Below the pieces are notes generated by a model that was not told where the DNA came from, did not search any database, and saw nothing but the letters and a program-made list of their open reading frames with translations. A stretch of DNA of 64,000 bases from a virus (taxonomy: Duplodnaviria > Caudoviricetes). Below, piece after piece: positions 7,222 to 44,240 of this stretch. The position numbers were made by a program, and so were the translations under genes. The stretch's first letter is position 1. Each line of letters begins with the position of its first letter. The DNA lies in the IMG/VR virus record IMGVR_UViG_3300036868_000046, positions 1 through 64,000 of that record. One strand, given 5' to 3'.

Positions 7222-7863
7222 ATGAGTGATTACAGGTACTTGGGATCGTGCTCTGGCCTCATCAACTCGGCCGCGTGGCTGGACAAACCGTATGGCGACG
7301 CGCCGCGCGAGGACGCGCCAGCCACGGCGGCGCTCACCGCAGCGCTCCGGGCTGGCGTCGACCCCACGGACGTCTGGCCGCGCTGGTGCGCCTGGGTGCT
7401 CGGCGAGCAAGGCCCCGCCGCCGAGGGCGAGGTGGTGGATCTCTTCCGACGGTGGGTCGAGGGCGTTCTTCCGTCTCAGACGGAGATCATGGCCGTCTAC
7501 ATCCGCCTCCTGCACCGCTACCTGGACGGGATGGGGGTGCTCGGCGAGCAAGGCCCCGCCGCCGTGGGCGAGGTGGTGGATCTCTTCCGACGGTGGGTCG
7601 AGGGCGTTCTTCCGTCTCAGACGGAGATCATGGCCGTCTACATCCGCCTCCTGCACCGCTACCTGGACGGGATGGATGCACGCCAGCTGGCCCGAGCGCA
7701 GCTGGCACCACTGAACGTGATGACGAGCCCGAGGCCGGAGTTCCGGATCAGTTTTTGGCTCTGGGACACCTCGCGCGGGGATGTCGTCTGGCGCCGGCGC
7801 GCGGCCGAAGCGTTCACGTCCATCGTCCGCAACGCCATGGAGGAGCGCCATGCGAGCAGGTAG
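7222..7863 (+). CDS. Hypothetical protein with an internal 47-aa tandem duplication
   Basis: 7394-7534 and 7535-7675 are 141-bp copies differing at one base. Confidence 0.75.
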   Translation: MSDYRYLGSCSGLINSAAWLDKPYGDAPREDAPATAALTAALRAGVDPTDVWPRWCAWVLGEQGPAAEGEVVDLFRRWVEGVLPSQTEIMAVYIRLLHRYLDGMGVLGEQGPAAVGEVVDLFRRWVEGVLPSQTEIMAVYIRLLHRYLDGMDARQLARAQLAPLNVMTSPRPEFRISFWLWDTSRGDVVWRRRAAEAFTSIVRNAMEERHASR

Positions 7864-8227
7864 CCGCGTCACGTGTCTGAGCGCGTGCCTGGCGCTCCTC
7901 GCCGCGTGCGGCTACGAGGCCGTAGGCAATGAGCTCGAGGGCCAGGTCAAGAAGGTCATCCGGCACACGCCGGTCTTCTGCGGCGACTACACGGAGACCA
8001 GCGTCTCGCTCGGCGTCTTGCGCAACGGCGTTGGCTCCGTTTCCAAGGAGGACGTGGAGCTCTACGTGGCCGACCCCAAGGCGATCTCCGTGCTGCAGGA
8101 GGCCGCGCGCACCGGCGCCCTCGTCACGATCGGCTACGACGTCCGCCGGCTCACGTGGTGCCTGCCCGACCACTGGCTCACGAGCGTTCGCGTCGAGGAG
8201 CCCCCGGCGGAACGGCGGACACCGTGA
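7850..8227 (+). CDS. Putative lipoprotein
   Basis: Signal peptide with lipobox LLAAC. Confidence 0.6.
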   Translation: MRAGSRVTCLSACLALLAACGYEAVGNELEGQVKKVIRHTPVFCGDYTETSVSLGVLRNGVGSVSKEDVELYVADPKAISVLQEAARTGALVTIGYDVRRLTWCLPDHWLTSVRVEEPPAERRTP

Positions 8228-10471
8228 TAACCCCGAAGCAAGTCGCCGATGCTGCGGCCGGGAACCCGCTGCTGCAGGTCTTAGAGATGAAGATCGACGC
8301 GGCGCTCAGGCAAGCAGCGGACGAGAACTACTGGCCGTGCACGGTCGACCTTCGCGGTTTCGATAACGTCGCCGAGCAAGTCGCGATGAAGTACCGCGCG
8401 GCCGGTTGGCACGTCAACATCTTCCACTACCGCCGTGGCGGGTACTTCTTGGAGCTGGCGGCCCGCCACGACCGCATCCCTGACCGAAAAGGAGATGGTC
8501 ATGCATGACTTCAAGTTCCTGCGCACCGCCCAAGGGGAGGCGAGCCATGCTGCATGGTGATCCGAACCTCAAGGACGGTGACCACGTCCGCTGGGTGAGC
8601 GGCATATGTCCAGCCAACACCGTTGTTGGCTGGCTGCGCGGCGACGAGATCATCGTCGAGTACGACACGTTCGCTTCACCTCATTTATTAAGGGGTAAGG
8701 CTTTCACGCTGCCCACGACGGGCAGGCTGGACCACCACCCCATCGCCAAGCTCTGCCACCGCATCGCGGCGGGGGGCGCGTACGACGGGCTGACGGCCGA
8801 GCAGTGCTTCGTGGCCTTCCAGGCGGCGCAGCAGGGTGCGTATGGGTTCGAGGGACGGCCCATGCCCGAGGATGGCCCGCGACCGGCGTCCCTCACCCCT
8901 GCGCAGCTCGCCGTCGCACGTGAGCTGTGGAGCGCGAAGCTGCGCGCCAAGATCGCAGCGGCGCGGGCATCCGAGCCGCGCGTGCTCGTCGATCTCGACC
9001 TGGATGGCCTATGACCAACAAGGAAGGTGGAGCGCCTATGAGCTGCTGCTGGGACGTCTGGTGTGTCGACTGTGCCACGAGGCTCGGAGTCAACGATGCG
9101 AACCACCGCGTCGTCGAGATGCGCATGCTCGTGAAGCATGCGAAGACGATCGAGATGCTCGGAGCCATCCAGGGCGAGATGCTCGAGAAGACGTTGAGCT
9201 ATGCGCCATTGTATGTCGAGCTCAATGGCATCACCATCGAGCCGATCTGGTTCCGTGTTCACGCCGGGCATCACCTCGTGCCGATCAACGAATACGGCGA
9301 GCTCGACAAGGGCGAGGAGAGCGGTCGGGCCGAGGACGATGAGCCATTCTGAAAAAGCGACCGTGAGACCTGGGTAAGGACATCCGCTACCACGCCTCCG
9401 TCCTGTATGGTCCACGGGAACAGCAGGAGGGATGACATTTGACCCGGTTCACGATCGAGCAGTACGACAAGGCGATCCAGCATCTGCAGGACGCCAGGAC
9501 CCAGCTCGCGCCCGACGGACACGGCTGTCACTGCTGCGGGGGCAGCGGTCACCAGGCGTTCGAGTGCGGCCACAACCCGCTCGTCGCCATGCAGATGTGC
9601 GAGATGATCACCAAGCGGGCCGTGGAGCTCCACGAGGCGCTCCACGACACCACAACAGGGATCTGTGACCTGTTCAAGCTCGCGAGACACAGCGACCAGA
9701 GCATCGAGCAGCGGAACCTGACCGTCATGGCGGCAGCCGCTGACGAAGACATGCAGGAACTACTGGTCACGCTCCACGAGTTCCTGCACTCCCTGGCGGG
9801 CATGAACATGTACATGGGCATGCAGCTCGGGCCGGCTCGGGTGGTGCTGCCGTGAGCTCCAAGCTATGGAGCGACCACCAGATCGTCCTGTTGCTGACGG
9901 TCGATGGTGAGCATTTCCGCCTCTTCATCTTCGCCCCAGACGACGAGAAGTCAGGTCCGTCCGTCGCAGTCCACCGGAAGGGGCGTGATGCGATCGGTGA
10001 CCCGTGCTGGAATGCGGTCTCTAACCAAAGGGCGCTGTCCCTGTCGCTGGTTGCGCTGGCGCGATTCGCCTTCGTGGCGTGCGTCGGAGCTCCGCATCAT
10101 CGGTGCGAGATCAAGCGCTCAGAGACCGGGCTGACGTACTACGAGCTCGACCTCGGCAACTTCTCTACCAAGGATGACATGCACGGTCATCTCCATGGCG
10201 AATGACCGTGGGTAGGAAACTTCGACCGCTTGCCGAGTGCTACGACCTGATCGAAGTCCGTGCGATTCGACTCGTCCGCTTGCACGTCGCCGGTCGTGAG
10301 CCGATGTCGAGCGCCGCCGCGAGGCGGAACCGCGAGCAACGTGACAAGGCGTTCGATCGCCTGGTCGCGGCAGTCGAGGAGCGCGACCGCGCTGCGATGG
10401 CCCATGAGGAACGGTGCGTGTTCCGGTCCAAGGCTGCGGCCACGCGTCGTCGGAACGGCGGCTCAAAGTAG
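8224..10471 (+). CDS. Small hypothetical ORFs (8224-8508, 8547-9014, 9011-9352, 9439-9855, 9852-10205, 10202-10471)
   Basis: Coupled ORFs with RBS-like motifs. 9439-9855 carries a CHCCGGSGHQAFEC zinc-knuckle-like motif. Confidence 0.55.
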
Positions 10472-10538
10472 CTCAGAGGAGTCTGAGACCTCCGGTCTTC
10501 GCAAGGCGGCGATCGGATACCGAGAAAGGAGATGTTTC

Positions 10539-12392
10539 ATGGGAAGTATCTGCGTCTACGAGTATGGCCTCATGCCGCCCAGCGAGGGAGCGGCGATAGT
10601 CGATGGCCAGATGTTCAAGGCACACCGCTACTACAACGTGCTCATCGAGATCGAGCATGCACGTCGTCTCGCAGTCCGCACCGCGATGTCCAGCCACGCC
10701 GACCTCGTCCCGCTCGAGGCCGAGCTCGAGAAGCTGGTCGCCGAGCAGGACGCGGCGAGGACGGCCATCAAGGCCGGTCGCAAGGCAACGCGATCCAAGT
10801 CGGAGAGCGCCGAGCAGCGCCAGGCCGTCCGGACCCTGGGTGAAAGGGTCAAGGAGCTCCGCCGGCTCACCAAGGCCGCCAGGACGGCCGTGCGCGAAGA
10901 CCCCGAGATCGCGGCCAAGATCGAGGCCGCCAACGAGGAGGCCAAGGTCAAGTGCAAGCAGGCCCGCGCCGCGTGCGGGGTCTACTGGGGGACCTACCTG
11001 CTCAAGGAGCAGGCCGCCGACGCCGCGCGCAAGAGCGTGACGCCGCCCAGGTTCGGGCGGTGGACGGGGGAGGCGAAGGTCTCCGTCCAGATCCAGCACG
11101 GCCTGTCGCTCGACAGGCTGTTCTCCGGGGGCAGCCAGCAGATCCAGATCGATCCTGTGCCGGAAGAGGCGTTCCTGATCCGCGGAGCTCGCCGGCGGGC
11201 GCGCGCATGCCTCACCAACCTCCGCATGCGGGTCGCGTCCGAGGACGGCAAGCCGGTGTGGGCGCACTGGCGGATCTGGCTGCATCGCCCGCTGCCCGAT
11301 GGCGCCCTGGTCAAGGTCGCCACGGTGTCGCGGCGCAACGTCCACTGCTCGCGCCAGCAGTGGGTGATGCACATGACGGTCGACACGAGCGCCTGCAAGC
11401 AAAGGGTCCGGCCCGACGGCGGGGTGCTGGCCCTGAACCTCGGCTACTGCCTCACCGAGGAGGGGTTCATCCGGTCGGGATACGCGGTCGGGGACGACAG
11501 CCACGAGCAGGAGATCCTCGTGGTCAAGAGCGACTATTACCGGACGGACCACGTCCGGCCCGATGGCATCCCGAATCCGGGTCGCGGCGTCAAGCAGAAC
11601 TACATCGTGAACGGCCTCGGCAAGAGCGCCAGCATCGAGGGGTTCAGGGACAAGAACCTGAACGAGTTCCTGGCGACGATCGGGCCGTGGCGGGAGACGA
11701 TGGCGAGCGCCGGCAAGCTGCCGGAGTGGTTCGTCGAGCGCACCAAGACGATCCACGCCTGGCGCTCTCAGCGGCGCCTCTACGCGCTCCACACGGTATG
11801 GGGCAAGCAGCGGTTTGATGGGGACCAGGCCGGGTGGGATGTGCTGGTCGCCTGGCGCGCACGCGATGCCCACCTTGACGCCTACCAGGCCGCGCTCCGC
11901 ATCTCCTCGCTCCGCGATCGCCGCGAGGGCTACCGCATCCTGGCCTCGCGGATGGCCAAACGCTACCGGACGCTCATCATCGACGACTTCGACCTGCGGA
12001 CGTTCATCCGGACGCCGGCGGCGGAGAGCGAGCGGCCAAACGTCGAGGTGTACCGGAAACAGCAGTTCACCGCGGCGTGCTCCGAGCTGCGCCAGGTGTT
12101 CGCCAACGCGTTCGGTGCCGAGAACGTCGTGAAGCTGTCGAGCAAGGACGTCTCGCGGCTCTGCCCGTGCGGCAACATCGTCGAGGTGTCCCCGGCGCGC
12201 ATCCAGGTGTGCGGGGCGTGCGGCATCTCCTGGGACCAGGACGCGAACGCCTGTCGCAACCTCCTGCGCATGCACGCCGCCCAGGGCGCCGGACCCGCGA
12301 AGGACGAGAAGAAGCCGAGCCGGTCGCAGCGGCTCCGATCGAACAAGCGCAAGGGCAAGGGCGATGCGCAGGCCAGCGAGGCGACGCAGTGA
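10539..12392 (+). CDS. Cas12m-like (type V-M / V-U1) CRISPR effector, about 617 aa, with a non-canonical RuvC
   Basis: AGGAG RBS. N-terminal YEYGL...AHRYYNVLIEIE, long coiled coil, GVYWGTY, RWTGEAKVSVQ and HRPLP. RuvC-I VLALNLGY (Asn in place of Asp), RuvC-II LIIDDFD (Asp in place of Glu), zinc finger CPCG..CGACG, RuvC-III WDQDANA. Size and motif order match my recollection of Cas12m; the cognate array is nearby. Confidence 0.8.
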   Translation: MGSICVYEYGLMPPSEGAAIVDGQMFKAHRYYNVLIEIEHARRLAVRTAMSSHADLVPLEAELEKLVAEQDAARTAIKAGRKATRSKSESAEQRQAVRTLGERVKELRRLTKAARTAVREDPEIAAKIEAANEEAKVKCKQARAACGVYWGTYLLKEQAADAARKSVTPPRFGRWTGEAKVSVQIQHGLSLDRLFSGGSQQIQIDPVPEEAFLIRGARRRARACLTNLRMRVASEDGKPVWAHWRIWLHRPLPDGALVKVATVSRRNVHCSRQQWVMHMTVDTSACKQRVRPDGGVLALNLGYCLTEEGFIRSGYAVGDDSHEQEILVVKSDYYRTDHVRPDGIPNPGRGVKQNYIVNGLGKSASIEGFRDKNLNEFLATIGPWRETMASAGKLPEWFVERTKTIHAWRSQRRLYALHTVWGKQRFDGDQAGWDVLVAWRARDAHLDAYQAALRISSLRDRREGYRILASRMAKRYRTLIIDDFDLRTFIRTPAAESERPNVEVYRKQQFTAACSELRQVFANAFGAENVVKLSSKDVSRLCPCGNIVEVSPARIQVCGACGISWDQDANACRNLLRMHAAQGAGPAKDEKKPSRSQRLRSNKRKGKGDAQASEATQ

Positions 12393-12726
12393 GCAACGGT
12401 GCGACGCCCATGCTGGACAGCCATGGGAGGGTGCTCAGCGAGTGCCCCCAGGACAAGCGCAAGAACTATCCGGTGAGTCCGGACTGTTGCGGGGCGCCCC
12501 AAGGTCTGTACTTCGCCAAGACCATCTATGATGGGGAACGCCTAGTCGCTATCGGCGGCTATATGCTGCGCTGCGCCGTCTGTCACTCCGAAATGGAGGT
12601 CGACCTCGTGACCACCATGATCGCCGGTCACTGGGTACGGGAGGTACTATGAAGTGCGTCAACTCACCCGCGAAGGACGAGAAGAAGCCGAGCCGGTCGC
12701 AGCGGCTCCGATCGAACAAGCGCAAG
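12294..12726 (+). repeat. Identical 60-bp direct repeat, 12294-12353 and 12667-12726
   Basis: A copy of the cas12-like 3' end recurs about 370 bp downstream. Confidence 0.9.
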
Positions 12727-13103
12727 TCCAGCGATCAGACCAGCGAGGCAACACCATGAGCCAGATGCCACATGATGATCCGGAATTTCCCATGCTCGAG
12801 GGGCCATTCGAGAGCCCCCGACCGAACCAGACCAGCGCGGACGACGCGCCGTGCGCCGAGCGGATGACCCGCGCCGAGCTCGCCGACCTGCTGGAGCGCG
12901 TCGCACCGCTCGTCCGATCGGGCGACTCCGCCGAGGGCCGGATCCAGTACCTGCTGCCCGACGAGGGGCCGTGGGACGATGTCATGGTCAGCGTCGCCGT
13001 GCGCTCCGGAAATCTCGGGGGCACCGGCTTCTGGCACGTGATCACGGGAGGTCAAGACATGGACAGCCTCCTCGCCGAGCTCGACAGGAAGGGGCGCCCG
13101 TGA
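12389..13103 (+). CDS. Two small hypothetical ORFs (12389-12652 Cys-containing; 12756-13103)
   Basis: Open frames; GTGA overlap with the cas12-like stop codon. Confidence 0.5.
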
Positions 13104-13327
13104 CCCGAATCGCGCTACTCCTCGTGGTCGCCGCCATGTCAGCGGCCTGCCCGGTGTCTCCGGGCCCCGATCGCTCCACGGTCGAACAGGAGCTCTCGGG
13201 GTCGGGGTCTCCCCTGGTCCGCCCGGATGACAGCTTCTGCGGCTCCCCCTGCTTCGATGACCTCGACTGCTGGGGTGACCAGTGCGTGAGGTGCCTCTCC
13301 GGTCAGTGCCGCGGCCACCCAAGGTGA
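13100..13327 (+). CDS. Small Cys-rich lipoprotein
   Basis: Lipobox MSAAC followed by CGSPCFDDLDCWGDQCVRCLSGQC. Confidence 0.65.
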   Translation: MTRIALLLVVAAMSAACPVSPGPDRSTVEQELSGSGSPLVRPDDSFCGSPCFDDLDCWGDQCVRCLSGQCRGHPR

Positions 13328-13380
13328 GGTGACCGCGAGGATCCTGGAGCTTGAACGGCTCAAGCCGTACAAACGAAGGC

Positions 13381-13928
13381 ATGAAGGTCACCGCCGAGAC
13401 AATCACGGACGAGCAGATCCTGCAGATGCAGGAGGAAACCGTTGAGCTGTTGGGAAGGTTCCCACCGTGCACAACGATCGCGCTGGCGCGGCCGGTTGGA
13501 CGCGATCGGCGTGCTCAACACAAGGTTGCACGCACACGCAAGCTCTACCTTGCTGCGCGTGAGGCATGCGCAGCCCTGTGGAACGCTCGGCACGGAGACG
13601 AGCCGTGAGCATGCACACCCGCAAGACCCTCGCCGGTCGCCTGCATCAGCTGCACTGCCTGATGTGCTTCGACGTCGTGCGCAATGTTCCCAAGGCCAAC
13701 CCGTGTCGCTGCCGCTGCCATCGGGTCACCGCCGAGACGATCACGGACGACCAGATCCGTGAGCTCTGCAACTCCTGCGAGATCTCCTTCGACCGCCTGT
13801 ATCGGGCGGTTCATCGCGAGCGGCCTGTAGGGGAGAGCCAGGCCGCGTACGATAGGCAACGGCTGTACCACAGGGGGCTCGCCGCCGCGGCCTGGAACGC
13901 CCGCCACGGAGACGAGCCTATCGAGTGA
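13381..13928 (+). CDS. Two paralogous small ORFs (13381-13608, 13605-13928) sharing VTAETITD.QI..L and A.WNARHGDEP
   Basis: Shared motifs at both DNA and protein level; a third relative lies at 49119-49340. Confidence 0.65.
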
Positions 13929-13949
13929 CCGCCATGGAGGACGAGCTCC

Positions 13950-14259
13950 GAGTGAGGACCGTGACGTAACACACTCGCGCTCTCTGCCTGCGCCTACCGC
14001 GAGGTGGTGGCGCACAACCTCATCACGCACCTGGAGGCACCGTGAAGCTCAACCCAACGTCAAAGCGAGACCGCTACATACTGACCGTCACTCTCCCGAC
14101 GGGGGAGCAGACGATCGCTCATCAGCTCTGTCAGACGCCGCAGCGAGGCAACGAAATCATGGTCATGGACCTAACAAGGCGCGATCCCTTCCAGCGCGCG
14201 AAGGAGCGTTGCCCTTGAGGCTCTCAACCGCCCTGAGTGAGGACCGTGACGTAACACAC
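13950..14259 (+). repeat. 25-bp direct repeat GAGTGAGGACCGTGACGTAACACAC (13950-13974, 14235-14259)
   Basis: Exact match seen by eye. Confidence 0.8.
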
Positions 14260-14308
14260 CGTTCCACGTAGCAAAGTGGTCCGACCTGGGGCATACGATC
14301 CGCCCCCA

Positions 14309-15745
14309 ATGACGTCACGTGGCTTTCACTTCCTGTTGGTGTTGTTGGCCGGGTGTGCGGGGCCCGCTCTGCGCGTACAGCTGGGACCCTCGGAGCTCCT
14401 CCTGGGGGCGCCAGGATGCTCCCAGGCGACGCCAGGCGATGACCTGGACGACCTGGGCGCCATCCAGGCGGCCATCAATGCCCGCTGCTGCCTGGGGCCC
14501 GGTACGTACGACGTGGATACGCCGGCCGCGCCGCCGGGCGGGCGCCGGCCGTACGCGATGCTGACCGTGCCACTGGATGCCGTGCTCTGCGGCGCCGGTC
14601 CGACCACCGTGATACGGTTCCGCGGCTCCGCCGGCGGGCAAGACTGGCGTGGCATCCAGCTCGCCGGCGGGGGCATCCATGACGTCCTGCTGGACACCTC
14701 CCAGCTCGTGGGGACCTCGGAGCAGACGCACGCCATCCACGTGCGAGGCCCGGCGACCGGCCTCATCGATCGGGTGAGCATCCACCACCCCGAGCGGATC
14801 GCCGGCGGGGTGACGCTGCCGGGCGGCGACTGCATCGACGTGGTGGGGTACGCGCCGGCCGAGCTGGTGGTGGGGCTCGTCATCCGGGACAGCCAGTTCC
14901 TGGCGTGCGACCGCGGAGGCATCCAGGTGCACGGCGGGACCCTGAACCTCACGGTGACCGGCAACGAGTTCCACCGGACCGGCAACCTCGACCTCAACAG
15001 CGAGGGATCGGGCGGATCCAGCCACTGGATCATCGCCGGCAACAGGTTCCGGGCCTCCGACGGCAACCACAGCGAGTACGCCATCGCGCTCGACCTGGTG
15101 GACACCGTGTCGGTGGTCGACAACCAGATCGAGCGCGGCGTGTACCTGTACAGCTGCACGCACTGCTCGCTGGTCAAGAACGCCATCACGATGACCGGGG
15201 GCAGCGCGGTCGAGACGGGGACCATCGAGGCCATCAAGGGCTCGAACGATCTGGTGATCGAGGAGAACGTCATCCGCCGGCCGGCGACGCAGGACTTCGG
15301 CCCCCTCCTCCACGTTGGTCCGCATGGCACCGCGCAGAGCGTCGGCGTTCGCGTCATTCACAACGAGCTCATCCAGGAGACCACGTCGGACATGATCTAC
15401 GCCGAGGGCGTCGCCGACCTGGCCATCGTCGACAACGCGCTCGAATACCGGGCCGCGGCGACCGGCGCCGCCGGGGTGCGTCTTCTGGGCAGCGCCACCT
15501 ATGGAACGTCGAAGGTGGCGCTGGTCGGCAACACCTTCGCAGGACCGCTCCGCTCGGCCGTCATGACCGGCGGCTCGGGGGAAAGGCAGGGGATCGGCTC
15601 GCTCTTGTCCGCCTGGAACATCGCGGAGGCGCCGGGGCTGGCGTGCGTCAACACGTCCGGCATCCAGGGGCCGCTCCTCCTCATCTACAACAGCTGGCCG
15701 GCGGCGATCTGTGGGTCACCGCCCATCCCGCTGATGCTTCCGTAG
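14309..15745 (+). CDS. Lipoprotein with a right-handed beta-helix (pectate lyase 3 / depolymerase-like)
   Basis: Lipobox LLAGC, DDLGAIQAAINA...PGTY, and repeated V.I.DN.F beta-helix rungs. Confidence 0.75.
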   Translation: MTSRGFHFLLVLLAGCAGPALRVQLGPSELLLGAPGCSQATPGDDLDDLGAIQAAINARCCLGPGTYDVDTPAAPPGGRRPYAMLTVPLDAVLCGAGPTTVIRFRGSAGGQDWRGIQLAGGGIHDVLLDTSQLVGTSEQTHAIHVRGPATGLIDRVSIHHPERIAGGVTLPGGDCIDVVGYAPAELVVGLVIRDSQFLACDRGGIQVHGGTLNLTVTGNEFHRTGNLDLNSEGSGGSSHWIIAGNRFRASDGNHSEYAIALDLVDTVSVVDNQIERGVYLYSCTHCSLVKNAITMTGGSAVETGTIEAIKGSNDLVIEENVIRRPATQDFGPLLHVGPHGTAQSVGVRVIHNELIQETTSDMIYAEGVADLAIVDNALEYRAAATGAAGVRLLGSATYGTSKVALVGNTFAGPLRSAVMTGGSGERQGIGSLLSAWNIAEAPGLACVNTSGIQGPLLLIYNSWPAAICGSPPIPLMLP

Positions 15746-15756
15746 ATTCCGCTCGC

Positions 15757-15868
15757 GTCTCAGGCGTTCGCCTGAGCGTGTCCCCATTGGTCGGTTCGTG
15801 GGTCTCAGACCGATGTCTGAGCGCTTCACCCTCGTGGGTCTCAGGCAGACACCTGAGCATTTCCTGAC
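15757..15868 (-). repeat. Mini-array A: 3 minimal CRISPR-repeat hairpins GTCTCA-N-TGAGC
   Basis: Units at 15757, 15802 and 15838, each with a different paired inner stem; spacers of 24 and 15 nt; intergenic. Confidence 0.75.
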
Positions 15869-15898
15869 TGTGGACATGTCCGCGCATGATAGTTTCAT

Positions 15899-16300
15899 GT
15901 GGACATGGCGTTCACAGGCACCCCCGTCATCCAGCAGCTGAACGATCGCACGGTGCGCATCACCGGCGTGTCCCTCGCGCTCTCCACCGCCGGGACCATC
16001 GGCCTGACGGGGGCGACGGGCACACCGCCCGACATCACCCTCCCTGCCAACTTCCGCGCGGCCGTGTACAGCTACAACGGCTCCTCGGTGCCGCTGCAGG
16101 CGAGCATCCAGTGCTGGGTCGAGCCGGTGACGATCGCCGGGGTCACCAACCTCCCGCCATCCGTCGGCAAGACTGGGACCGCCGTGACGGACTTCCGCAT
16201 CACCATCACGAACACCAACACCGGGCTCGCAACGCAGGACCTCGAGATCCTCGTCATCTCCCACATGCCCTACGTCGGCGCGCCCGCGCAGATCGCCTGA
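15899..16300 (+). CDS. Beta-rich putative virion protein (paralog of 19119-19475)
   Basis: MAF.GT.V..Q..DR.VRITGV.L.....GTI.LTG.TGT.PDITLP is shared with 19119-19475. Confidence 0.7.
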   Translation: MDMAFTGTPVIQQLNDRTVRITGVSLALSTAGTIGLTGATGTPPDITLPANFRAAVYSYNGSSVPLQASIQCWVEPVTIAGVTNLPPSVGKTGTAVTDFRITITNTNTGLATQDLEILVISHMPYVGAPAQIA

Positions 16301-16308
16301 GGTCCACC

Positions 16309-16944
16309 ATGTCATCGGACAAGCTGTTCGTCATCCTCGACTTCACCGGGGTCGTCATCGGCGGCACGCAGACGCTGAGCCACGGGCTCAAGATCAACGG
16401 CCAGCCACTGGCGCCGGACATGGTGTGGCTCCAGTACCCCGACCTCTTCGAGGTCACCGCGGCGACGACCACGAGCATCACCGTTCACAACGTGAGCGCG
16501 AGCGGCGGCGCCACGCTGGCGCTGTGCCAGGTCATCCATCCGATCATGCGCTCGTTCGGTTCGCCGCCTGATGACGGCTCGCTGATACAGCACATGACGC
16601 CCCAGCCGTTCGTAGTCGGCTCGCCGAACGCGACGCCGACTCCGACCCCGACGGGACTGACCGTGACGGCGGTGCAGACAGCAAACGTCGTCCTGACCTC
16701 GAGCTCGAACGTCGTCCGGGTGAACCCGACCGGCGGGGCTTTCAGCGTCACGCTGCCGGCTGCCTCCACGGTCGGTGGCCAGTCGACCATCGTCAAGAAC
16801 GTCTCGTCCTCGGGCAACCTCATCACCGTGCTGCCTGGAGGGGGCGACACCATCGACGGTCTGGCACAGGCAACCCTCTCCGGGGATCACTTCAAGTGGT
16901 GGGTCATCAGCGATGGGGCCTCCGGCTGGATGATTGTCGGCTGA
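16309..16944 (+). CDS. Putative spike/fibre-associated protein
   Basis: C-terminal V.LP.A......Q...VKN...SGN.ITV.PGGGDTIDG motif typical of phage fibre domains. Confidence 0.55.
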   Translation: MSSDKLFVILDFTGVVIGGTQTLSHGLKINGQPLAPDMVWLQYPDLFEVTAATTTSITVHNVSASGGATLALCQVIHPIMRSFGSPPDDGSLIQHMTPQPFVVGSPNATPTPTPTGLTVTAVQTANVVLTSSSNVVRVNPTGGAFSVTLPAASTVGGQSTIVKNVSSSGNLITVLPGGGDTIDGLAQATLSGDHFKWWVISDGASGWMIVG

Positions 16945-16965
16945 CGCATGACGACAGAGACAGGG

Positions 16966-18470
16966 GTCTCAAGGCGATTCCCTGAGCTTCCTTGCCGTTG
17001 GTGCAGGTGTCTCAAGGCATGGAGCCCTGAGCGTTTCTTGCGACGACAGTCTCGGGTCGGGTCTCAAGCACGTCTCAAGGCATGGAGCCTTGAGCATTTC
17101 TTGCTACCGGATCGCACCTTCGCCGCGCGCGTCCTCGGGTGGCAGGTCTCAAGGCGTTTGAGCCCTGAGCATCCCTTGCGGTGACGAGCTCGCGGTAGAT
17201 GAGCCTCCAAGTCTCAAGGCGAGGGCCCTGAGCATCCCTTGTGACAAGTACGGCCTCGCGTGCCTGGTCTCAAGGCGCGGTGCCCTGAGCATCTCTTGCG
17301 ACGTCAACGGTAGAGCGCGCATGCTGCACGTCTCAAGGCATGGAGACTTGAGCATTTCTTTGCGACGACAGCCACCGACGCGTCTCAAGGCATGGAGCCT
17401 TGAGCATTTCTTGCTACCGGATCGCACGGAGTTCCCGTCTCAAGACGGGAGCCTTGAGCACTTCCAGAGGGTCCATGGCTGCAGGTCTCAAGGCGAGGGC
17501 CCTGAGCATCCCTTGTGACAAGGACGGCCTCGCGTGCCTACCGACGGAAAGCGTCTCAGGGCGAGAGCTCTGAGCATCCCGTATCCCGGGGCTGTCAGTC
17601 TCAAGGCGAGGGCCCTGAGCATCCCTTTCCCTGCCCACACATCGCCCGTCGGGTCTCAAAAGACACGGAGCCTTGAGCATCCCTTGTTGCGTCATTGCTG
17701 GGTCTCAGGGCGTCGGCCCTGAGCATCCCTTTGCAACCCACATCACCGCCGGTGCCGATCTCGCGTCTGGAATTCGATCCGTCCGATCTGCGTCTCAAGG
17801 CATGGAGCCTTGAGCGTTTCCAGCGCGTGCTCGAATCTCAAGGTGATGAGCCCTTGAGCATCCTCCTTTGCGACCGGACCGCGCGGTAGTCGTCGACGAC
17901 GGCGCCCCGTTCGACGCTCTCGGTATCTGGATTGGGGTCTCAAGGCATGGCGCCTTGAGCATCCCTTGCGACACTTCCGGACCGTGTCTCGACATTACGG
18001 GAGTTGGAGTCTCAAGGCATGGAGCCTTGAGCATCCCTTGCGACATCTCATGGGCGCCGCCGCCGACAACCACCAACGAGTCTCAAGGCATGGAGCCTTG
18101 AGCATCCCTTGCGACATGTCGGCGGCGACGGCGTATCCGTCGCGCTGCATCTCGTCTCAAGGCATGGAGCCTTGAGCATCCCTTGCGACCCGTGCCTCGT
18201 TGTTGCGCCAGAGCAGCGCTTGTTCGTCTCAAGGCATGGAGCCTTGAGCATCCCTTGCGACATCTCATGGGCGCCGACAACCACCAACGAGTCTCAAGGC
18301 ATGGAGCCTTGAGCATCCCTTGCGACGTCCCCGACCGCGTATCCCGACCGGATGAACCCCTGTCTCAAGGCATGGAGCCTTGAGCATCCCTTGCGACACA
18401 ATGTCCGCGCCGCGTGCATCGCCTGCAACCTGGAGTCTCAAGGCATGGAGCCTTGAGCATCCCTTGCGAC
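16966..18470 (-). CRISPR. CRISPR array, about 24 repeat units; 36-nt consensus (minus strand) GTCGCAAGGGATGCTCAAGGCTCCATGCCTTGAGAC
   Basis: 7 perfect repeats at 18009, 18080, 18154, 18226, 18291, 18362 and 18435, plus a 1-mismatch copy at 17937, with 29-38-nt spacers. About 16 degenerate units run 16966-17874. The minus orientation puts the 8-bp hairpin plus AC next to the spacer, and a recurrent variant gives a G-U pair only on the minus strand. Confidence 0.95.
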
Positions 18471-18646
18471 CCTTCGTTCCAACTATTCAGTTATCACCAG
18501 GACTTGGATACCTGGTTTCGAGCGGTGGGATCTTCCACGCGAAGTGAGTCACGCTCGTTATTGAGCGTGACGAGAATCCCCAACGTCTCCAGACAGTTGA
18601 TACACGCGAGCGGCCTCCTTGGCAAGCGCGTCACCTCTCCGCTCGC
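18471..18646 (-). promoter_or_regulatory. Putative CRISPR leader
   Basis: Lower GC, adjacent to the most conserved repeat; contains inverted repeat GTCACGCTC/GAGCGTGAC. Confidence 0.6.
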
Positions 18647-20188: not shown

Positions 20189-20753
20189 TCCGGCCCCGGG
20201 ATCGGCATGATGGCGTACCACTCCGAGGTCCACAGGGTCGCCTCGACCATGCATGACCTCAGTGCCTCCAGATGTCGGGCGACGGCGGCGACAGCGGCAT
20301 CGTACGTCTCGGTCACCTCGACCGGACGCTGGAGCTGTCTGGTAGCATCGCACTTCATGACGACGAACTTGATGCTCACTTGGCCTGCCTCAGCTTCTCG
20401 TCGATCACCGCGCGATCGATGAGCCGGTCGATGGCGCCGGCGTCGTCATCTTCCTCGAGTCCATCGAGCTCGTCGTCCGCATGGACGTCGGCCGGGCGGG
20501 TCTCGTTGGCCAGGGCGACCCGGCCGATGTTCTCGATGGGTGGCGCTTTTTTGGGGGCGACGACGCTCATCGGCTCGACGCGCGCGGTCTTGGACAGCCG
20601 GTTGCCGACCACGTACTCCTTGAGCTTGTGGGCGGCGTCCCAGGACAGGCCCTCCCCCCAGAGCTTCACCCAGTCCTTGTCGCGGACGCGGTAGAGCATC
20701 CCCTCCTGCGGCACGAGCTTGACGATCTTCTGCGGCTTGTGGTGCGGTCTCAT
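20185..20753 (-). CDS. Two small hypothetical ORFs (20185-20379, 20376-20753)
   Basis: Coupled open frames. Confidence 0.5.
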
Positions 20754-20811
20754 CGCCGTGAGCCTATCACCACGTGACACGGACCTGAACGGTTCAACGT
20801 GGGGCATCGAG

Positions 20812-20926
20812 GTCTCAGTCGTCGACTGAGCGCGTCCGGCCAAGAGTCTCAGGCTTGAGCCTGAGCGTTCTCGGGCTGGCGCCTGAAGCGGCCACATTCC
20901 TTCGTCTCAGTCTCAGGTGACTGAGC
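20812..20926 (-). repeat. Mini-array B: 3 minimal repeat hairpins
   Basis: Units at 20812, 20846 and 20904, all GTCTCAG-stem-loop-CTGAGC; spacers of 14 and 37 nt. Confidence 0.75.
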
Positions 20927-21918: not shown

Positions 21919-22272
21919 GTCTCAGCGGAGGGCCGCTGAGCAGCCCCAGGGCAGTTCCGCTTGCGGTCTCAGGCTCCATCACGAGCTCTTGCTAGTCTCA
22001 GGCACACCTGAGCGGGTCCCTACGACGCTATGGTCTCAATCGAGGTTGAGCGTATCCGAATATCACCCGTCTCAGCACCCGTTCGTGGCCTGAGCTCGTG
22101 CATGTCTCAGGGTGCTCGGCTACGGTGTGTCTCAACCAAGCGTTGAGCAGCCACGATACCTGATGTCTCATGGTAATCACCTGAGCAGTCCCAGCCACGG
22201 ATGACGACTATTACCTATTCGATTGTCACGACCGCTCCTCTCATGTCTCTGACTATGGGCAGAGCGCATCCC
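21919..22272 (-). repeat. Mini-array C: about 9 minimal repeat hairpins
   Basis: GTCTC starts at 21919, 21966, 21995, 22033, 22069, 22104, 22129, 22165 and 22245. Most close with TGAGC; the last has a compensatory CTCTG/CAGAG stem followed by GCATCCCT. Confidence 0.75.
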
Positions 22273-22322: not shown

Positions 22323-24812
22323 TCAGCCGCCCAGGAGAATGACCTTACCCGGATTGCCGGCGGATCCAGCCACGGATATGCCGCCGCCCGCAGCACCACC
22401 TGCACCTCCGGTCACATCCGTGGTCGGGAACGTCGTGCCGGTGGTCATCGAGATGACCACGTAGCCGCCACCACCACCGCCGCCACCACCGGAGTTGATC
22501 GTCGCGTTGCCCGCGCCGCCGGCGCCGCCTTTGGCGGACACCGTGATGTTCGTCGGGTTCGTGATCTGGCCGGTGATGAGGACGACGTAGCCACCGCCCG
22601 ACCCGCCGCCACCGCCCGACCCACCGACCGCACCGCCGCCGGAGGCGCCGCCGGTGCCGCCGCAGACCGCGGTGGAGGTTGAAAGGCGCAACCGGGCGGC
22701 GGTGGCGCGCACGAAGTTGTTGAGCGAGCCGTTGGTGTCGGGGGAGAGGGTGGGCGCCGTCGATCCGACGCCGCCGGTGAACCCCGTGCCTGCGCCGCCA
22801 GAGCCACCGAGCCCCGCCTGAAACGACGTGGGCCACTCGCCGGAGACCGGCGCCTGCCCGGTCTGCCCGTTGGATGCAGCAGGCGCGGAGACGCCGGCGC
22901 CCGACGCGGTGACCAGCGTGCCGTTGCCGGTGAACGCCGCACCACCCGCCGCGCTACCGCCGGCGCCGTTGCCGGCCGTGCCGGGCAGCCCGATCATCTG
23001 GATGGTGAGCGTGCCGGAGCTCGGGCCGGCGAGCGTCTTGGCGTAGATCACGAAGCCGCCGGTGTTGATCACCGCCGAGGTCGTCGCGGAGGCGACCGAC
23101 CAGTACATGTCGCGGGTCAGGGTGACGGTTCCCGAGAACGTGGTGGCGCCGTCGCTGCCGTCGCCGGCCAGGAGAACCGTGGATGGGGCCGAGGTCACGT
23201 TGGCGCTCGCGGTGACGGTGGAGCCGTTGAGCCCGAACGAGACGCCGTTCGAGTTCGAGAACACCACCGTGCCCGCTCCCACGGATGCCGTGCCGGCGCT
23301 GATCGCGACCCCGCCGCCCGGGACCGTGTAGCTGCCGGTGACCGTCGAGCCGTTGAGCCCGAACGAGAGACCGTTGGAGTTCGAGAACACCACCGTGCCC
23401 GCGCCCACCGACGCGGTCCCCGCGCTGATGGCCGCCGGCGCCGTCGACTGCGTGTAGCTCGCGGTGACGGTGGAGCCGTTGAGGCCGAACGAGACGCCGT
23501 TCGAGTTCGAGAACACCACCGTGCCTGCACCGACGGATGCGGCGCCGGCGCTGATCGCCGCCGGTGCGGTGGGCACGGTGTAGCTGCCGGTGACCGTCGA
23601 GCCGTTGAGGCCGAAGGCGAGGCCGTTGGAGTTCGAGAACACGACGGTCCCGGCGCCGACGGATGCGGCGCCGGCGCTGATGGCGGCTGGGGCGGTCGAC
23701 TGCGTGTAGCTCGCCGTGATGCGCGTCGAGCCGCTCAGGCCGAACGACACGCCGTTGGAGTTCGAGAACACGATGGTCCCGCTCGTCGCCGTCTGCGTGC
23801 CGGCGGCGATCGCCCCGGGCGCGGTCGACTGCGAGTAGCTCGCCGTGACCGTGGAGCTCGACAGGCCGAACGTGACACCGTTCGAGTTCGAGAACACCAC
23901 GACCCCGCTCGTCGCCGTCTGCGTGCCTGCGGCGAGGCCGACGCCCGACGCCGTACCACCGGCGGTCTGCACCGAGGCGGTCACCGTGCCGTTGGAGAGG
24001 CCGAACGAGACGCCGTTCGAGTTCGAGAACACGACGGTCCCCGCGCTCCGGCTCTGCGTGCCGGCGCTCACCACGAGCGGTGAGTAGCTCGCCGTCACCG
24101 TCGAGTTGCTCATCCCGAACGAGATGCCGTTCGAGTTCGAGAAGTCGACGACGCCGCTCGTCGCCGACTGGGTTCCCGCGCTGACCGCCACGCCCGCGCT
24201 CGTGATGTCCTCGCTGAGCGCCGCGAAGCCGATGTTGACGACGGGGCTTCCGGGGTTGATGGGAGGGACGCCGCTGCGCCGGACCCGCATCCAGGCGGCG
24301 GCGATCACGCCGGACTGGCCGCCCGGCCCCTGCGAGAACACGAACGGCTGCGCCCAGTCGGTCGTGCCGTCGACCGACACCTCGACGATGAGCGTCCCGC
24401 CGAACGCGCCGCCGACCTGCACCGTCTTGAACAGGCCCAGCACCGCCGTGACGTCCACCGCGGCGCCCGCCCCCGTGCCGGCCGGCACCGGCAACGAGAC
24501 GAACGACACGCCCGAGGCCGTGCCGCCGATGTTCACCTGCGACGTGCCACCGAAGGTCGCGTTGAACCCGGACGACCGCACGCGCATCCAGCGCGCCGCG
24601 ACCTGGACCGTCGTGGATCCGGAGTTCTGGATGCTCGCGACCGACTGCCACGAGCCGCCCTGCGCGGCGTCGTTGTTGTATTCGATGTTGATGGTCCGCT
24701 GTGCGGTGCCGACCACCACGATGGTCTTGGTCGCACCGAACGCAGAGACGTCCACGGATGCGCCGACGCCGTTGGCCACCGGGACGGGGAGCGAAACGAA
24801 CAGGTTGCTCAC
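22323..24812 (-). CDS. Long Gly/Ser-rich fibre or spike protein with eight ~38-aa FSNSNG repeats
   Basis: GTG start after GGAGG; 8 copies of (S/A)AG....(A/S)G.VVFSNSNG.SFGL...TVT.SY; Gly-rich C-terminal domain. Confidence 0.8.
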   Translation of the reverse strand: MSNLFVSLPVPVANGVGASVDVSAFGATKTIVVVGTAQRTINIEYNNDAAQGGSWQSVASIQNSGSTTVQVAARWMRVRSSGFNATFGGTSQVNIGGTASGVSFVSLPVPAGTGAGAAVDVTAVLGLFKTVQVGGAFGGTLIVEVSVDGTTDWAQPFVFSQGPGGQSGVIAAAWMRVRRSGVPPINPGSPVVNIGFAALSEDITSAGVAVSAGTQSATSGVVDFSNSNGISFGMSNSTVTASYSPLVVSAGTQSRSAGTVVFSNSNGVSFGLSNGTVTASVQTAGGTASGVGLAAGTQTATSGVVVFSNSNGVTFGLSSSTVTASYSQSTAPGAIAAGTQTATSGTIVFSNSNGVSFGLSGSTRITASYTQSTAPAAISAGAASVGAGTVVFSNSNGLAFGLNGSTVTGSYTVPTAPAAISAGAASVGAGTVVFSNSNGVSFGLNGSTVTASYTQSTAPAAISAGTASVGAGTVVFSNSNGLSFGLNGSTVTGSYTVPGGGVAISAGTASVGAGTVVFSNSNGVSFGLNGSTVTASANVTSAPSTVLLAGDGSDGATTFSGTVTLTRDMYWSVASATTSAVINTGGFVIYAKTLAGPSSGTLTIQMIGLPGTAGNGAGGSAAGGAAFTGNGTLVTASGAGVSAPAASNGQTGQAPVSGEWPTSFQAGLGGSGGAGTGFTGGVGSTAPTLSPDTNGSLNNFVRATAARLRLSTSTAVCGGTGGASGGGAVGGSGGGGGSGGGYVVLITGQITNPTNITVSAKGGAGGAGNATINSGGGGGGGGGYVVISMTTGTTFPTTDVTGGAGGAAGGGISVAGSAGNPGKVILLGG

Positions 24813-43725: not shown

Positions 43726-43793
43726 TAGGCGAAACCGCGCCGAGAGCGCGGTCTGCGGGGGGGCACCCCTACCCCGCACTGATGAGCCAGGGG
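43726..43793 (+). ncRNA. Type II hammerhead ribozyme HHR2 (cleavage after 43753)
   Basis: Stem I TGCGGGG/CCCCGCA, core CTGATGA, stem II GCC/GGC, pseudoknot CCCCT/AGGGG. Confidence 0.9.
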
Positions 43794-43818
43794 ACAGGCC
43801 GACACCAGGAGAATCGCA

Positions 43819-44154: not shown

Positions 44155-44223
44155 TAGGCGAAACCGCGCAGTGAGCGCGGTCTGCAGGTGATGACGCCCT
44201 ACCCTGCACTGATGAGCATGGGC
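44155..44223 (+). ncRNA. Type II hammerhead ribozyme HHR3 (cleavage after 44182)
   Basis: Core intact; stem I TGCAGG/CCTGCA; short stem II (GC/GC); pseudoknot GCCC/GGGC. Confidence 0.8.
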
Positions 44224-44240
44224 TAAAGAGGAAGTCAACG

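Follow-up and report, generated by a model that had tools for sequence, protein, structure and literature searches.

What does a virus do with a CRISPR effector and an array of its own, in the absence of any adaptation gene, and at what are its guides aimed? This question is raised by the first 64 kb (hereafter the window) of the 78,782-bp virus record IMGVR_UViG_3300036868_000046 from IMG/VR, which carries a cas12m gene on the plus strand and, further on, a CRISPR array on the minus strand. An original prediction, made from the sequence of the window, had described a virus-encoded, Cas12m-like protein that represses competing elements or host genes. The module is indeed virus-encoded, as the record is that of a complete virus with an integrase and an endolysin. 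We consider it probable that effector and array form an intact, working type V-M module of a temperate virus, in which minus-strand CRISPR RNAs (crRNAs) would guide the silencing of DNA by binding. The only identifiable target of its spacers is the virus's own cas12m.

The effector gene and its virus lineage

The cas12m gene (10539..12392, plus strand) encodes a 617-aa type V-M effector of the N-D-D RuvC subclass with a Cys4 zinc ribbon. A Shine-Dalgarno-like site (10526-10531) lies 7 nt ahead of its ATG, and this start is favoured over the 593-aa database call because homology to a solved Cas12m begins at residue 7. The residues read from the sequence in the original prediction were all found again, with Asn300 as RuvC-I, Asp482 as RuvC-II and Asp568 as RuvC-III, and with Cys544/546 and Cys558/561 as the cysteine pairs of the zinc ribbon. 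In a phmmer search of PDB sequences the Cas12m entry 23vw was matched over its full length (E 1.3e-63), followed by the Cas12m entries 23vu (E 1.4e-14) and 8hhl (E 6.7e-10), and the PADLOC model Cas12u1 was matched with E 1.6e-77, Cas12u1 or V-U1 being the former naming of type V-M Cas12m. An AlphaFold2 model built on 35 homologues (predicted local distance difference test score 90.6) was most similar in Foldseek to Cas12m2 (8hhl; template modelling (TM) scores 0.74/0.77) and to GoCas12m (8pm4; 0.77/0.78), and the predicted fold has the Cas12m pattern of a WED domain, a REC domain with a long helical insertion, RuvC and zinc ribbon. Identity to the solved members is only ~20–35%, and both the profile and the structure comparison bear out the predicted Cas12m-like effector.

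The alternative for this gene was a transposon TnpB, served by a 3'-terminal omega RNA and having nothing to do with the array. In its favour, Pfam did show a weak resemblance to the Cas12f/TnpB zinc-ribbon domain, and TnpB structures did appear, far down the fold-search list (TM 0.38; Cas12f ~0.33). However, the Cas12m matches were better by tens of orders of magnitude, the TnpB-like PDB protein reaching E 0.02 only, and the TM scores to Cas12m were 0.74–0.78. Furthermore, no Y1 transposase or TnpA was present among the 108 predicted proteins of the complete genome, the position of the gene is fixed and syntenic across diverged viruses, and a cognate repeat family accompanies it. This candidate was rejected and is effectively refuted, with hardly any chance left to it. 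The protein is confirmed as a genuine full-length type V-M Cas12m.

The Asn-Asp-Asp triad was found in 66 of 105 aligned sequences (the window protein and 104 relatives), and every aligned sequence above ~37% identity has it. RuvC triads of the types DED, NED, HDD, NDD and others have been described in the Cas12m family, and the N-D-D triad of the present protein is a published variant and no new lesion. Across 35 members of the clade, 45 alignment columns are invariant, among them the triad and three of the zinc cysteines, and all of these residues are intact here. The ratio of non-synonymous to synonymous substitution rates against a 72%-identical orthologue is 0.34, showing that cas12m is under purifying selection. 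Published N-D-D proteins are nuclease-dead, PAM (protospacer-adjacent motif)-dependent DNA binders, as in the case of PpCas12m (PMC11013384), and for PmCas12m a 5'-YTN PAM and a solved N-D-D site have been reported (bioRxiv 10.64898/2026.03.26.714355). More generally, Cas12m orthologues bind double-stranded DNA in a PAM-dependent manner without cleavage and process pre-crRNA independently of RuvC (PMC10442227, PMC11013384). By analogy with the published N-D-D orthologues, the window protein would not be expected to cut DNA.

The gene is located between plus-strand early genes and the end of a minus-strand virion operon. The same syntenic position was found in G000, in G001/L004 (86 kb, complete), in L009/10, in L011 (82 kb), in L012 (79 kb) and in L032, and in L030 (86 kb) the neighbouring genes are common but their order is rearranged. 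Cas12m identity among these syntenic or related viruses lies between 36% and 72%. Contigs of 77–84 kb carry at least eight N-D-D homologues, and 29 IMG/VR loci encode Cas12m relatives. Judged from the synteny, this range of identity and the number of loci, cas12m is an old, inherited gene of the virus lineage that is common on viral contigs.

The array and its spacers

The array of 36-nt repeats that had been noticed in the window was recovered, with eight repeats in its canonical part and about 15 degenerate units beyond them. The canonical part (17937..18470, minus strand) consists of identical or near-identical repeats separated by spacers of 29–38 nt, all on the minus strand, which are, from the leader onwards, S1 (18398-18434), S2 (18327-18361), S3 (18262-18290), S4 (18190-18225), S5 (18116-18153), S6 (18045-18079) and S7 (17973-18008). 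In the distal part (16966..17874, minus strand) the base of the hairpin is kept and the 5' halves of the units have decayed. The intergenic region 18471..18646 (minus strand; 56% GC against 66% for the genome) is a putative leader and promoter region and likely the leader of the array.

As predicted, the minus-strand repeat has a hairpin and AC at its end, the hairpin being of 7 bp, and the same ending was seen in the arrays next to cas12m in relatives. Such arrays lie directly downstream of cas12m in 14 other loci (L005, L006, L007, L011, L012, L016-L018, L022-L024, L037, L040 and L053), and where they were read, the repeat is on the strand of the gene and ends in a hairpin and AC. The window repeat could be aligned without gaps to eight repeats from cas12m-adjacent arrays at a mean identity of 72%. 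In this repeat family 98% of the hairpin is paired and four of its six pairs show compensatory changes, and the covariation score of 0.465 was reached by none of 500 shuffles (0.222 in shuffles); a pseudoknot register of the family is partly kept in the window repeat (3/5 pairs). The covariance model made from the repeat alignment matched the window array on the minus strand only, with scores of 35.6–36.2 bits for the canonical repeats and from 30.5 down to 12 bits in the degenerate part, and in the genome as a whole 43 copies of the hairpin motif were counted where 0.96 would be expected. Since the repeat fits the Cas12m family on the minus strand only, the array is cognate but inverted, and the repeat comparison supports it as an array of the type cognate to Cas12m.

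No anti-repeat of at least 14 nt was found, the longest repeat-complementary stretch outside the array being 13 nt with one mismatch, and thus no trans-activating crRNA (tracrRNA) is expected. The absence of cas1, cas2 and cas4, noted before for the window, extends to the complete 78,782-bp genome (PADLOC on the 108 proteins and six-frame searches). Rfam holds no family for the CRISPR repeat and returned only two hammerhead ribozymes, described below.

We propose that a leader of its own would drive minus-strand transcription of the array, convergently with the cas12m operon, and that Cas12m would itself cut the transcript into crRNAs with a ~34-nt repeat handle and a ~17–20-nt guide, no tracrRNA being involved. 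The resulting complex would bind PAM-flanked double-stranded DNA without cutting it, which would block transcription or replication. The likeliest use of such a module would be for a resident virus to silence incoming DNA, that of close kin included. We infer the self-processing, the binding without cleavage and the silencing outcome from the behaviour of characterised orthologues.

The spacers gave one target. S2 is identical to the virus's own cas12m over 35/35 nt (blastn-short, E 5e-15), and its protospacer (11461..11495, plus strand; sequence and frame checked) lies just past the RuvC-I motif. A crRNA with S2 would pair with the template strand, and the PAM side of the protospacer faces the oncoming polymerase. 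In interference with nuclease-dead Cas12a (dCas12a), this is the orientation that blocks elongation. The closest relatives differ from S2 at 7 and 13 positions of the protospacer, position 2 included, indicating that S2 matches either this virus itself or kin that are nearly identical. We regard S2 as a probable self- or kin-derived spacer, which may have persisted because the effector does not cut; whether it could throttle cas12m and the genes downstream would depend on the PAM. None of the relatives examined has a spacer against its own cas12m.

No other target was found. S1, S4, S5 and S7 had no match in exact 22-nt searches of IMG/VR, and a gapped pattern covering S3 and S6 had none in IMG/VR or in JGI metagenome contigs. 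When 14 spacers were compared with the genome and the viral loci, both as nucleotides and as six-frame peptides, only the self-match of S2 appeared. Likewise, there was no significant match between the canonical array part and two whole IMG/VR relatives, no cross-targeting match between the arrays of relatives and the collected loci, and no match for one L012 spacer in an exact-type search. The searches were mostly exact-match and therefore insensitive, so that the negative result is weak. The spacer searches thus yielded the self-match and nothing else, and the proposed targeting of competing elements or host genes gained no support, S1 and S3–S7 being without a match in the large public collections searched.

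The original prediction had also taken the spacers at the leader end to be new, and their acquisition to depend on borrowed host Cas1–Cas2. Growth of the array by acquisition alone gained no support. A 6-nt indel of a GGC-type triplet repeat is all that separates S3 from S6, and such a near-duplicate pair at the new-looking end points to recombination or slippage besides acquisition. For the borrowing of host genes no support was obtained; searches for a host identified none, and neither the 185,579 GTDB genomes nor the JGI metagenome contigs contained the exact repeat hairpin, so that no compatible host array came to light.

Two further features of the array are recorded here. The reverse complement of S3/S6 resembles the start of a gene, an ATG with Gly/Ala codons after it. 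On the plus strand, the variant repeats at 17074-17094 and 17384-17404 resemble terminator hairpins followed by a T-rich tract, and they could stop the convergent plus-strand operon, which ends at 16944.

Several observations weigh against a working module that is used for defence or competition. The array lies 4.6 kb away, as had been noted before (from the end of cas12m to the near end of the array), and it is inverted. No sigma-70 consensus was found in a promoter scan of its leader region. About 15 of its ~24 units, the leader-distal two thirds, are degenerate, with spacers of 9–38 nt, several duplicated blocks and guides too short for function. An external target was found for no spacer, and the 5' flank of the S2 protospacer on the non-target strand is GAGG at 11457-11460, a purine-rich sequence, whereas the PAMs of characterised Cas12m proteins are TTN, YTN or C-rich (PMC11013384; bioRxiv 10.64898/2026.03.26.714355; bioRxiv 10.64898/2026.10.26.761838). 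Finally, in L009/L010, which at 72% identity are the closest relatives, the 3.5–5.5 kb available downstream of the gene contain no array, and L030 has minimal hairpins only and no canonical array, so that the effector may not depend on a canonical array.

Much of this would also be seen if the array were a decaying, unused relic, its self-matching and duplicate spacers neutral debris of recombination, and Cas12m either kept for another reason or on its way to being lost. The truncated spacers and duplicated blocks of the degenerate units, the displacement and inversion of the array relative to those of relatives, the lack of targets and the absent or minimal arrays of L009/10, L030 and G001 (in the last of which it is reduced to a mini-array) all fit this explanation. 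It does not account for the eight leader-proximal repeats that are identical or nearly so and enclose spacers of normal length, nor for the purifying selection on a protein in which all family-invariant residues are intact, and 35 nt matched without a single difference imply that either selection or a recent event was at work. We therefore consider a relic very unlikely.

Repeat-derived hairpins outside the array and the viral genome

Units derived from the repeat were also found outside the array. One of them, a minimal repeat-like hairpin with GAGAC at its end (10471..10489, plus strand), starts at the stop codon of the upstream open reading frame (ORF) and ends 49 nt before the start of cas12m. 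It was picked up by a motif scan, and the family repeat model matched it weakly (16.2 bits, E 0.056). The same hairpin occurs at the equivalent spot upstream of cas12m in L009/L010, with compensatory changes in the inner stem. In L040 a full-length repeat-like unit ends 35 nt upstream of cas12m, and L030 has two minimal units upstream of the gene (7913-7964) and, 6 kb downstream on the opposite strand, a cluster of five identical ones (16136-16617). Repeated stretches just upstream of cas12m were seen in L041, L048 and L017 as well.

Elsewhere in the genome the minimal units form four satellite clusters, in which the base and the GAGAC end are all that is left of the repeat. All four are intergenic, and three of the four are in sense orientation. 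Three minimal units at 15757..15858 (minus strand) are antisense to the flanking genes. Four units at 20747..20926 (minus strand) occupy an intergenic gap of the minus-strand virion operon, and six units at 21919..22186 (minus strand) a 519-nt intergenic gap of the same operon, in both cases in sense orientation. The fourth cluster of minimal hairpins lies beyond the window, at genome positions 70967-71107. The cluster at 20747-20926 is syntenic with near-full repeat copies in L012, and that at 21919-22186 with repeat-like units in L011; in both relatives the units resemble each virus's own repeat. The sequences that follow the hairpin units were searched for pseudo-spacers of the CreR type and had no second site of at least 11 nt in the genome.

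These hairpins and the self-match of S2 raise the question of whether self-regulation is the main job of the module, Cas12m having been co-opted to control the virus's own expression. This could happen in two ways. A roadblock set by S2 within cas12m would repress the gene itself and the plus-strand genes as far as 16944, and the hairpins in the 5' untranslated region and in the gaps of the virion operon would be sites at which Cas12m binds or cuts mRNA. The match of S2 is exact, with its PAM-proximal side facing RNA polymerase, and it is specific to this virus, relatives differing at 7–13 positions. The hairpin between the upstream stop and cas12m is conserved in L009/10 with its compensatory changes, solitary units precede the gene in L030 and L040 and repeated stretches in L041, L048 and L017, and the satellite clusters sit at syntenic intergenic sites and follow each virus's own repeat. 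In other subtypes, autorepression by the degenerate mini-arrays called CreR is established, as are repeat units that lie upstream of cas12a (bioRxiv 10.1101/2023.03.10.532045; PMC10120712), and a roadblock in the coding sequence was among the designs tested for MmCas12m (bioRxiv 10.64898/2026.10.26.761838). However, the GAGG flank is unlike any known Cas12m PAM, no examined relative has a comparable spacer, and the sequences after the solitary units lack a second target in the genome. The minimal units, moreover, are without the 5' half of the repeat, which forms a pseudoknot in solved Cas12m crRNAs, and the cluster at 15757-15858 is antisense to its neighbours. Self-regulation as the main job is thus conceivable, although we think it unlikely.

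The same idea can be extended to the whole family, with Cas12m acting mainly as a programmable regulator of its own viral genome and no longer mainly as a weapon, by feedback through S2, polar repression of the fibre genes and hairpins that serve as docking or cutting sites on mRNA. We regard this extension as doubtful. In the 86-kb relative G001 (L025-L029) a 14-nt palindrome occurs nine times, once just after the cas12m mini-array. As a guide target it was rejected, being a separate, multi-copy, operator-like motif that is absent from the window.

The virus that carries the module has a 125-bp direct terminal repeat and an estimated completeness of 100%. Among its 108 predicted proteins are a tyrosine integrase, a GH25 endolysin with a peptidoglycan-binding domain, a ParB-like protein, DUF5131 and DUF1643 proteins, and a beta-helix tailspike-like protein together with sugar-modifying enzymes. 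Fibre- or tailspike-like genes follow cas12m on the plus strand up to 16944. No tailed-phage capsid, portal or terminase was recognisable in the genome. The best explanation of the carrier is a temperate virus, one of a family of ~80-kb viruses. A contig identical to this one, array included, was assembled from a second sample, and no strain variants of the array appeared among the other assemblies, all of which are 100% identical. In metagenome-assembled genomes the Cas12m profile found only homologues of 26–36% identity, in several phyla, none of them being the present virus.

An exact 61-nt duplication was found at the 3' end of cas12m, with copy 1 at 12293..12353 and copy 2 at 12666-12726 (plus strand), bracketing a 373-bp insert that contains an 80-aa Cys-rich ORF (12410-12652). 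The second copy can be read as an alternative C-terminus of Cas12m, the stop of which overlaps the start of the next gene. The duplication and the overlapping stop and start suggest that the small Cys-rich gene was inserted into a formerly coupled gene pair.

Other features of the genome were noted in passing. Two type II hammerhead ribozymes (43727-43796 and 44156-44228), both above the Rfam gathering threshold, lie in a region of small plus-strand genes. A 141-bp unit is tandemly duplicated at 7394-7675 within a coding region (99% identity), and an 843-aa minus-strand gene contains tandem repeats at 23205-23900 with a period of 126/381 bp, ~80% identical.

Comparison with known systems

Cas12m is a naturally 'dead' Cas12 in development for CRISPR interference, base editing and epigenome editing, and what is known of its biology comes from no more than a few copies in bacteria and plasmids. 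The present locus shows an N-D-D Cas12m as a stable, conserved gene of a whole virus family and not as a passenger, and it shows that such a virus can carry a guide that matches its own effector gene perfectly, with repeat-derived hairpins at conserved, regulatory-looking positions. If the purine-rich flank of the S2 protospacer were a working PAM, the range of PAMs open to compact DNA binders would be wider, and the locus would be a natural case in which an ordinary array spacer autoregulates a CRISPR effector. Otherwise it would be a case of non-cutting effectors letting self-derived spacers accumulate.

Compared with the N-D-D proteins PpCas12m and PmCas12m, the window protein is of the same family and fold, with a length of ~600 aa, the same triad and a zinc ribbon. 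Its 36-nt repeat, 3' hairpin and pseudoknot register are like those of type V-M at large, including the HDD-type MmCas12m2 and GoCas12m; adaptation genes and a tracrRNA are likewise lacking, and binding without cleavage would be expected by analogy. In contrast with these systems, the present one is virus-encoded and its effector is a syntenic gene of the lineage, its array is inverted, 4.6 kb away and drawn out into a long degenerate tail, and it has a spacer on its own effector gene, whose single known flank is purine-rich instead of TTN or YTN.

Other virus-borne Cas12m proteins have been described, namely UnCas12m, which was derived from IMG/VR and used experimentally in 2024 (PMC11013384), and MvCas12m of the myxophage MV-1, called the 'first in a bacteriophage' in a preprint of September 2026 (bioRxiv 10.64898/2026.09.14.751636). 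In view of the 29 IMG/VR loci with relatives, the latter claim understates how common such genes are. MV-1 and the window virus both have an array and no cas1, cas2 or cas4; for MV-1 no protospacers were found. However, MvCas12m and UnCas12m both have a D-E-D site whereas the window protein is N-D-D, the array adjoins the gene in MV-1 and is remote here, and the window carrier has no recognisable structural genes of tailed phages.

In virus-borne mini-CRISPR arrays (Medvedeva et al. 2019, cited in PMC10120712), as far as that citing account describes them, adaptation genes are also absent and spacers are aimed at the virus's own or a kindred genome. According to the same account, those viruses have no effector and use that of the host, and related viruses are what their spacers match. 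The window virus, by contrast, has an effector of its own, and its match is exact to self and poor to the relatives compared.

The closest parallel in regulation would be CreR and the solitary units upstream of cas12a (bioRxiv 10.1101/2023.03.10.532045; PMC10120712). In both cases a standalone, repeat-derived unit stands upstream of the effector gene and recurs across loci, and the shared logic would likely be autoregulation of the effector. Here, however, the system is of type V-M and is found in viruses, the upstream unit is reduced to a minimal 3' hairpin, and for its putative pseudo-spacer no separate promoter target was found; as candidate guide for autoregulation there is an array spacer of full length that matches the coding region throughout. 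Taken together, type V-M, the N-D-D subclass and virus-borne Cas12m are already known, and what is particular to this locus is that the effector gene itself is targeted, that the array is inverted and remote, and that the gene is syntenic across a virus family.

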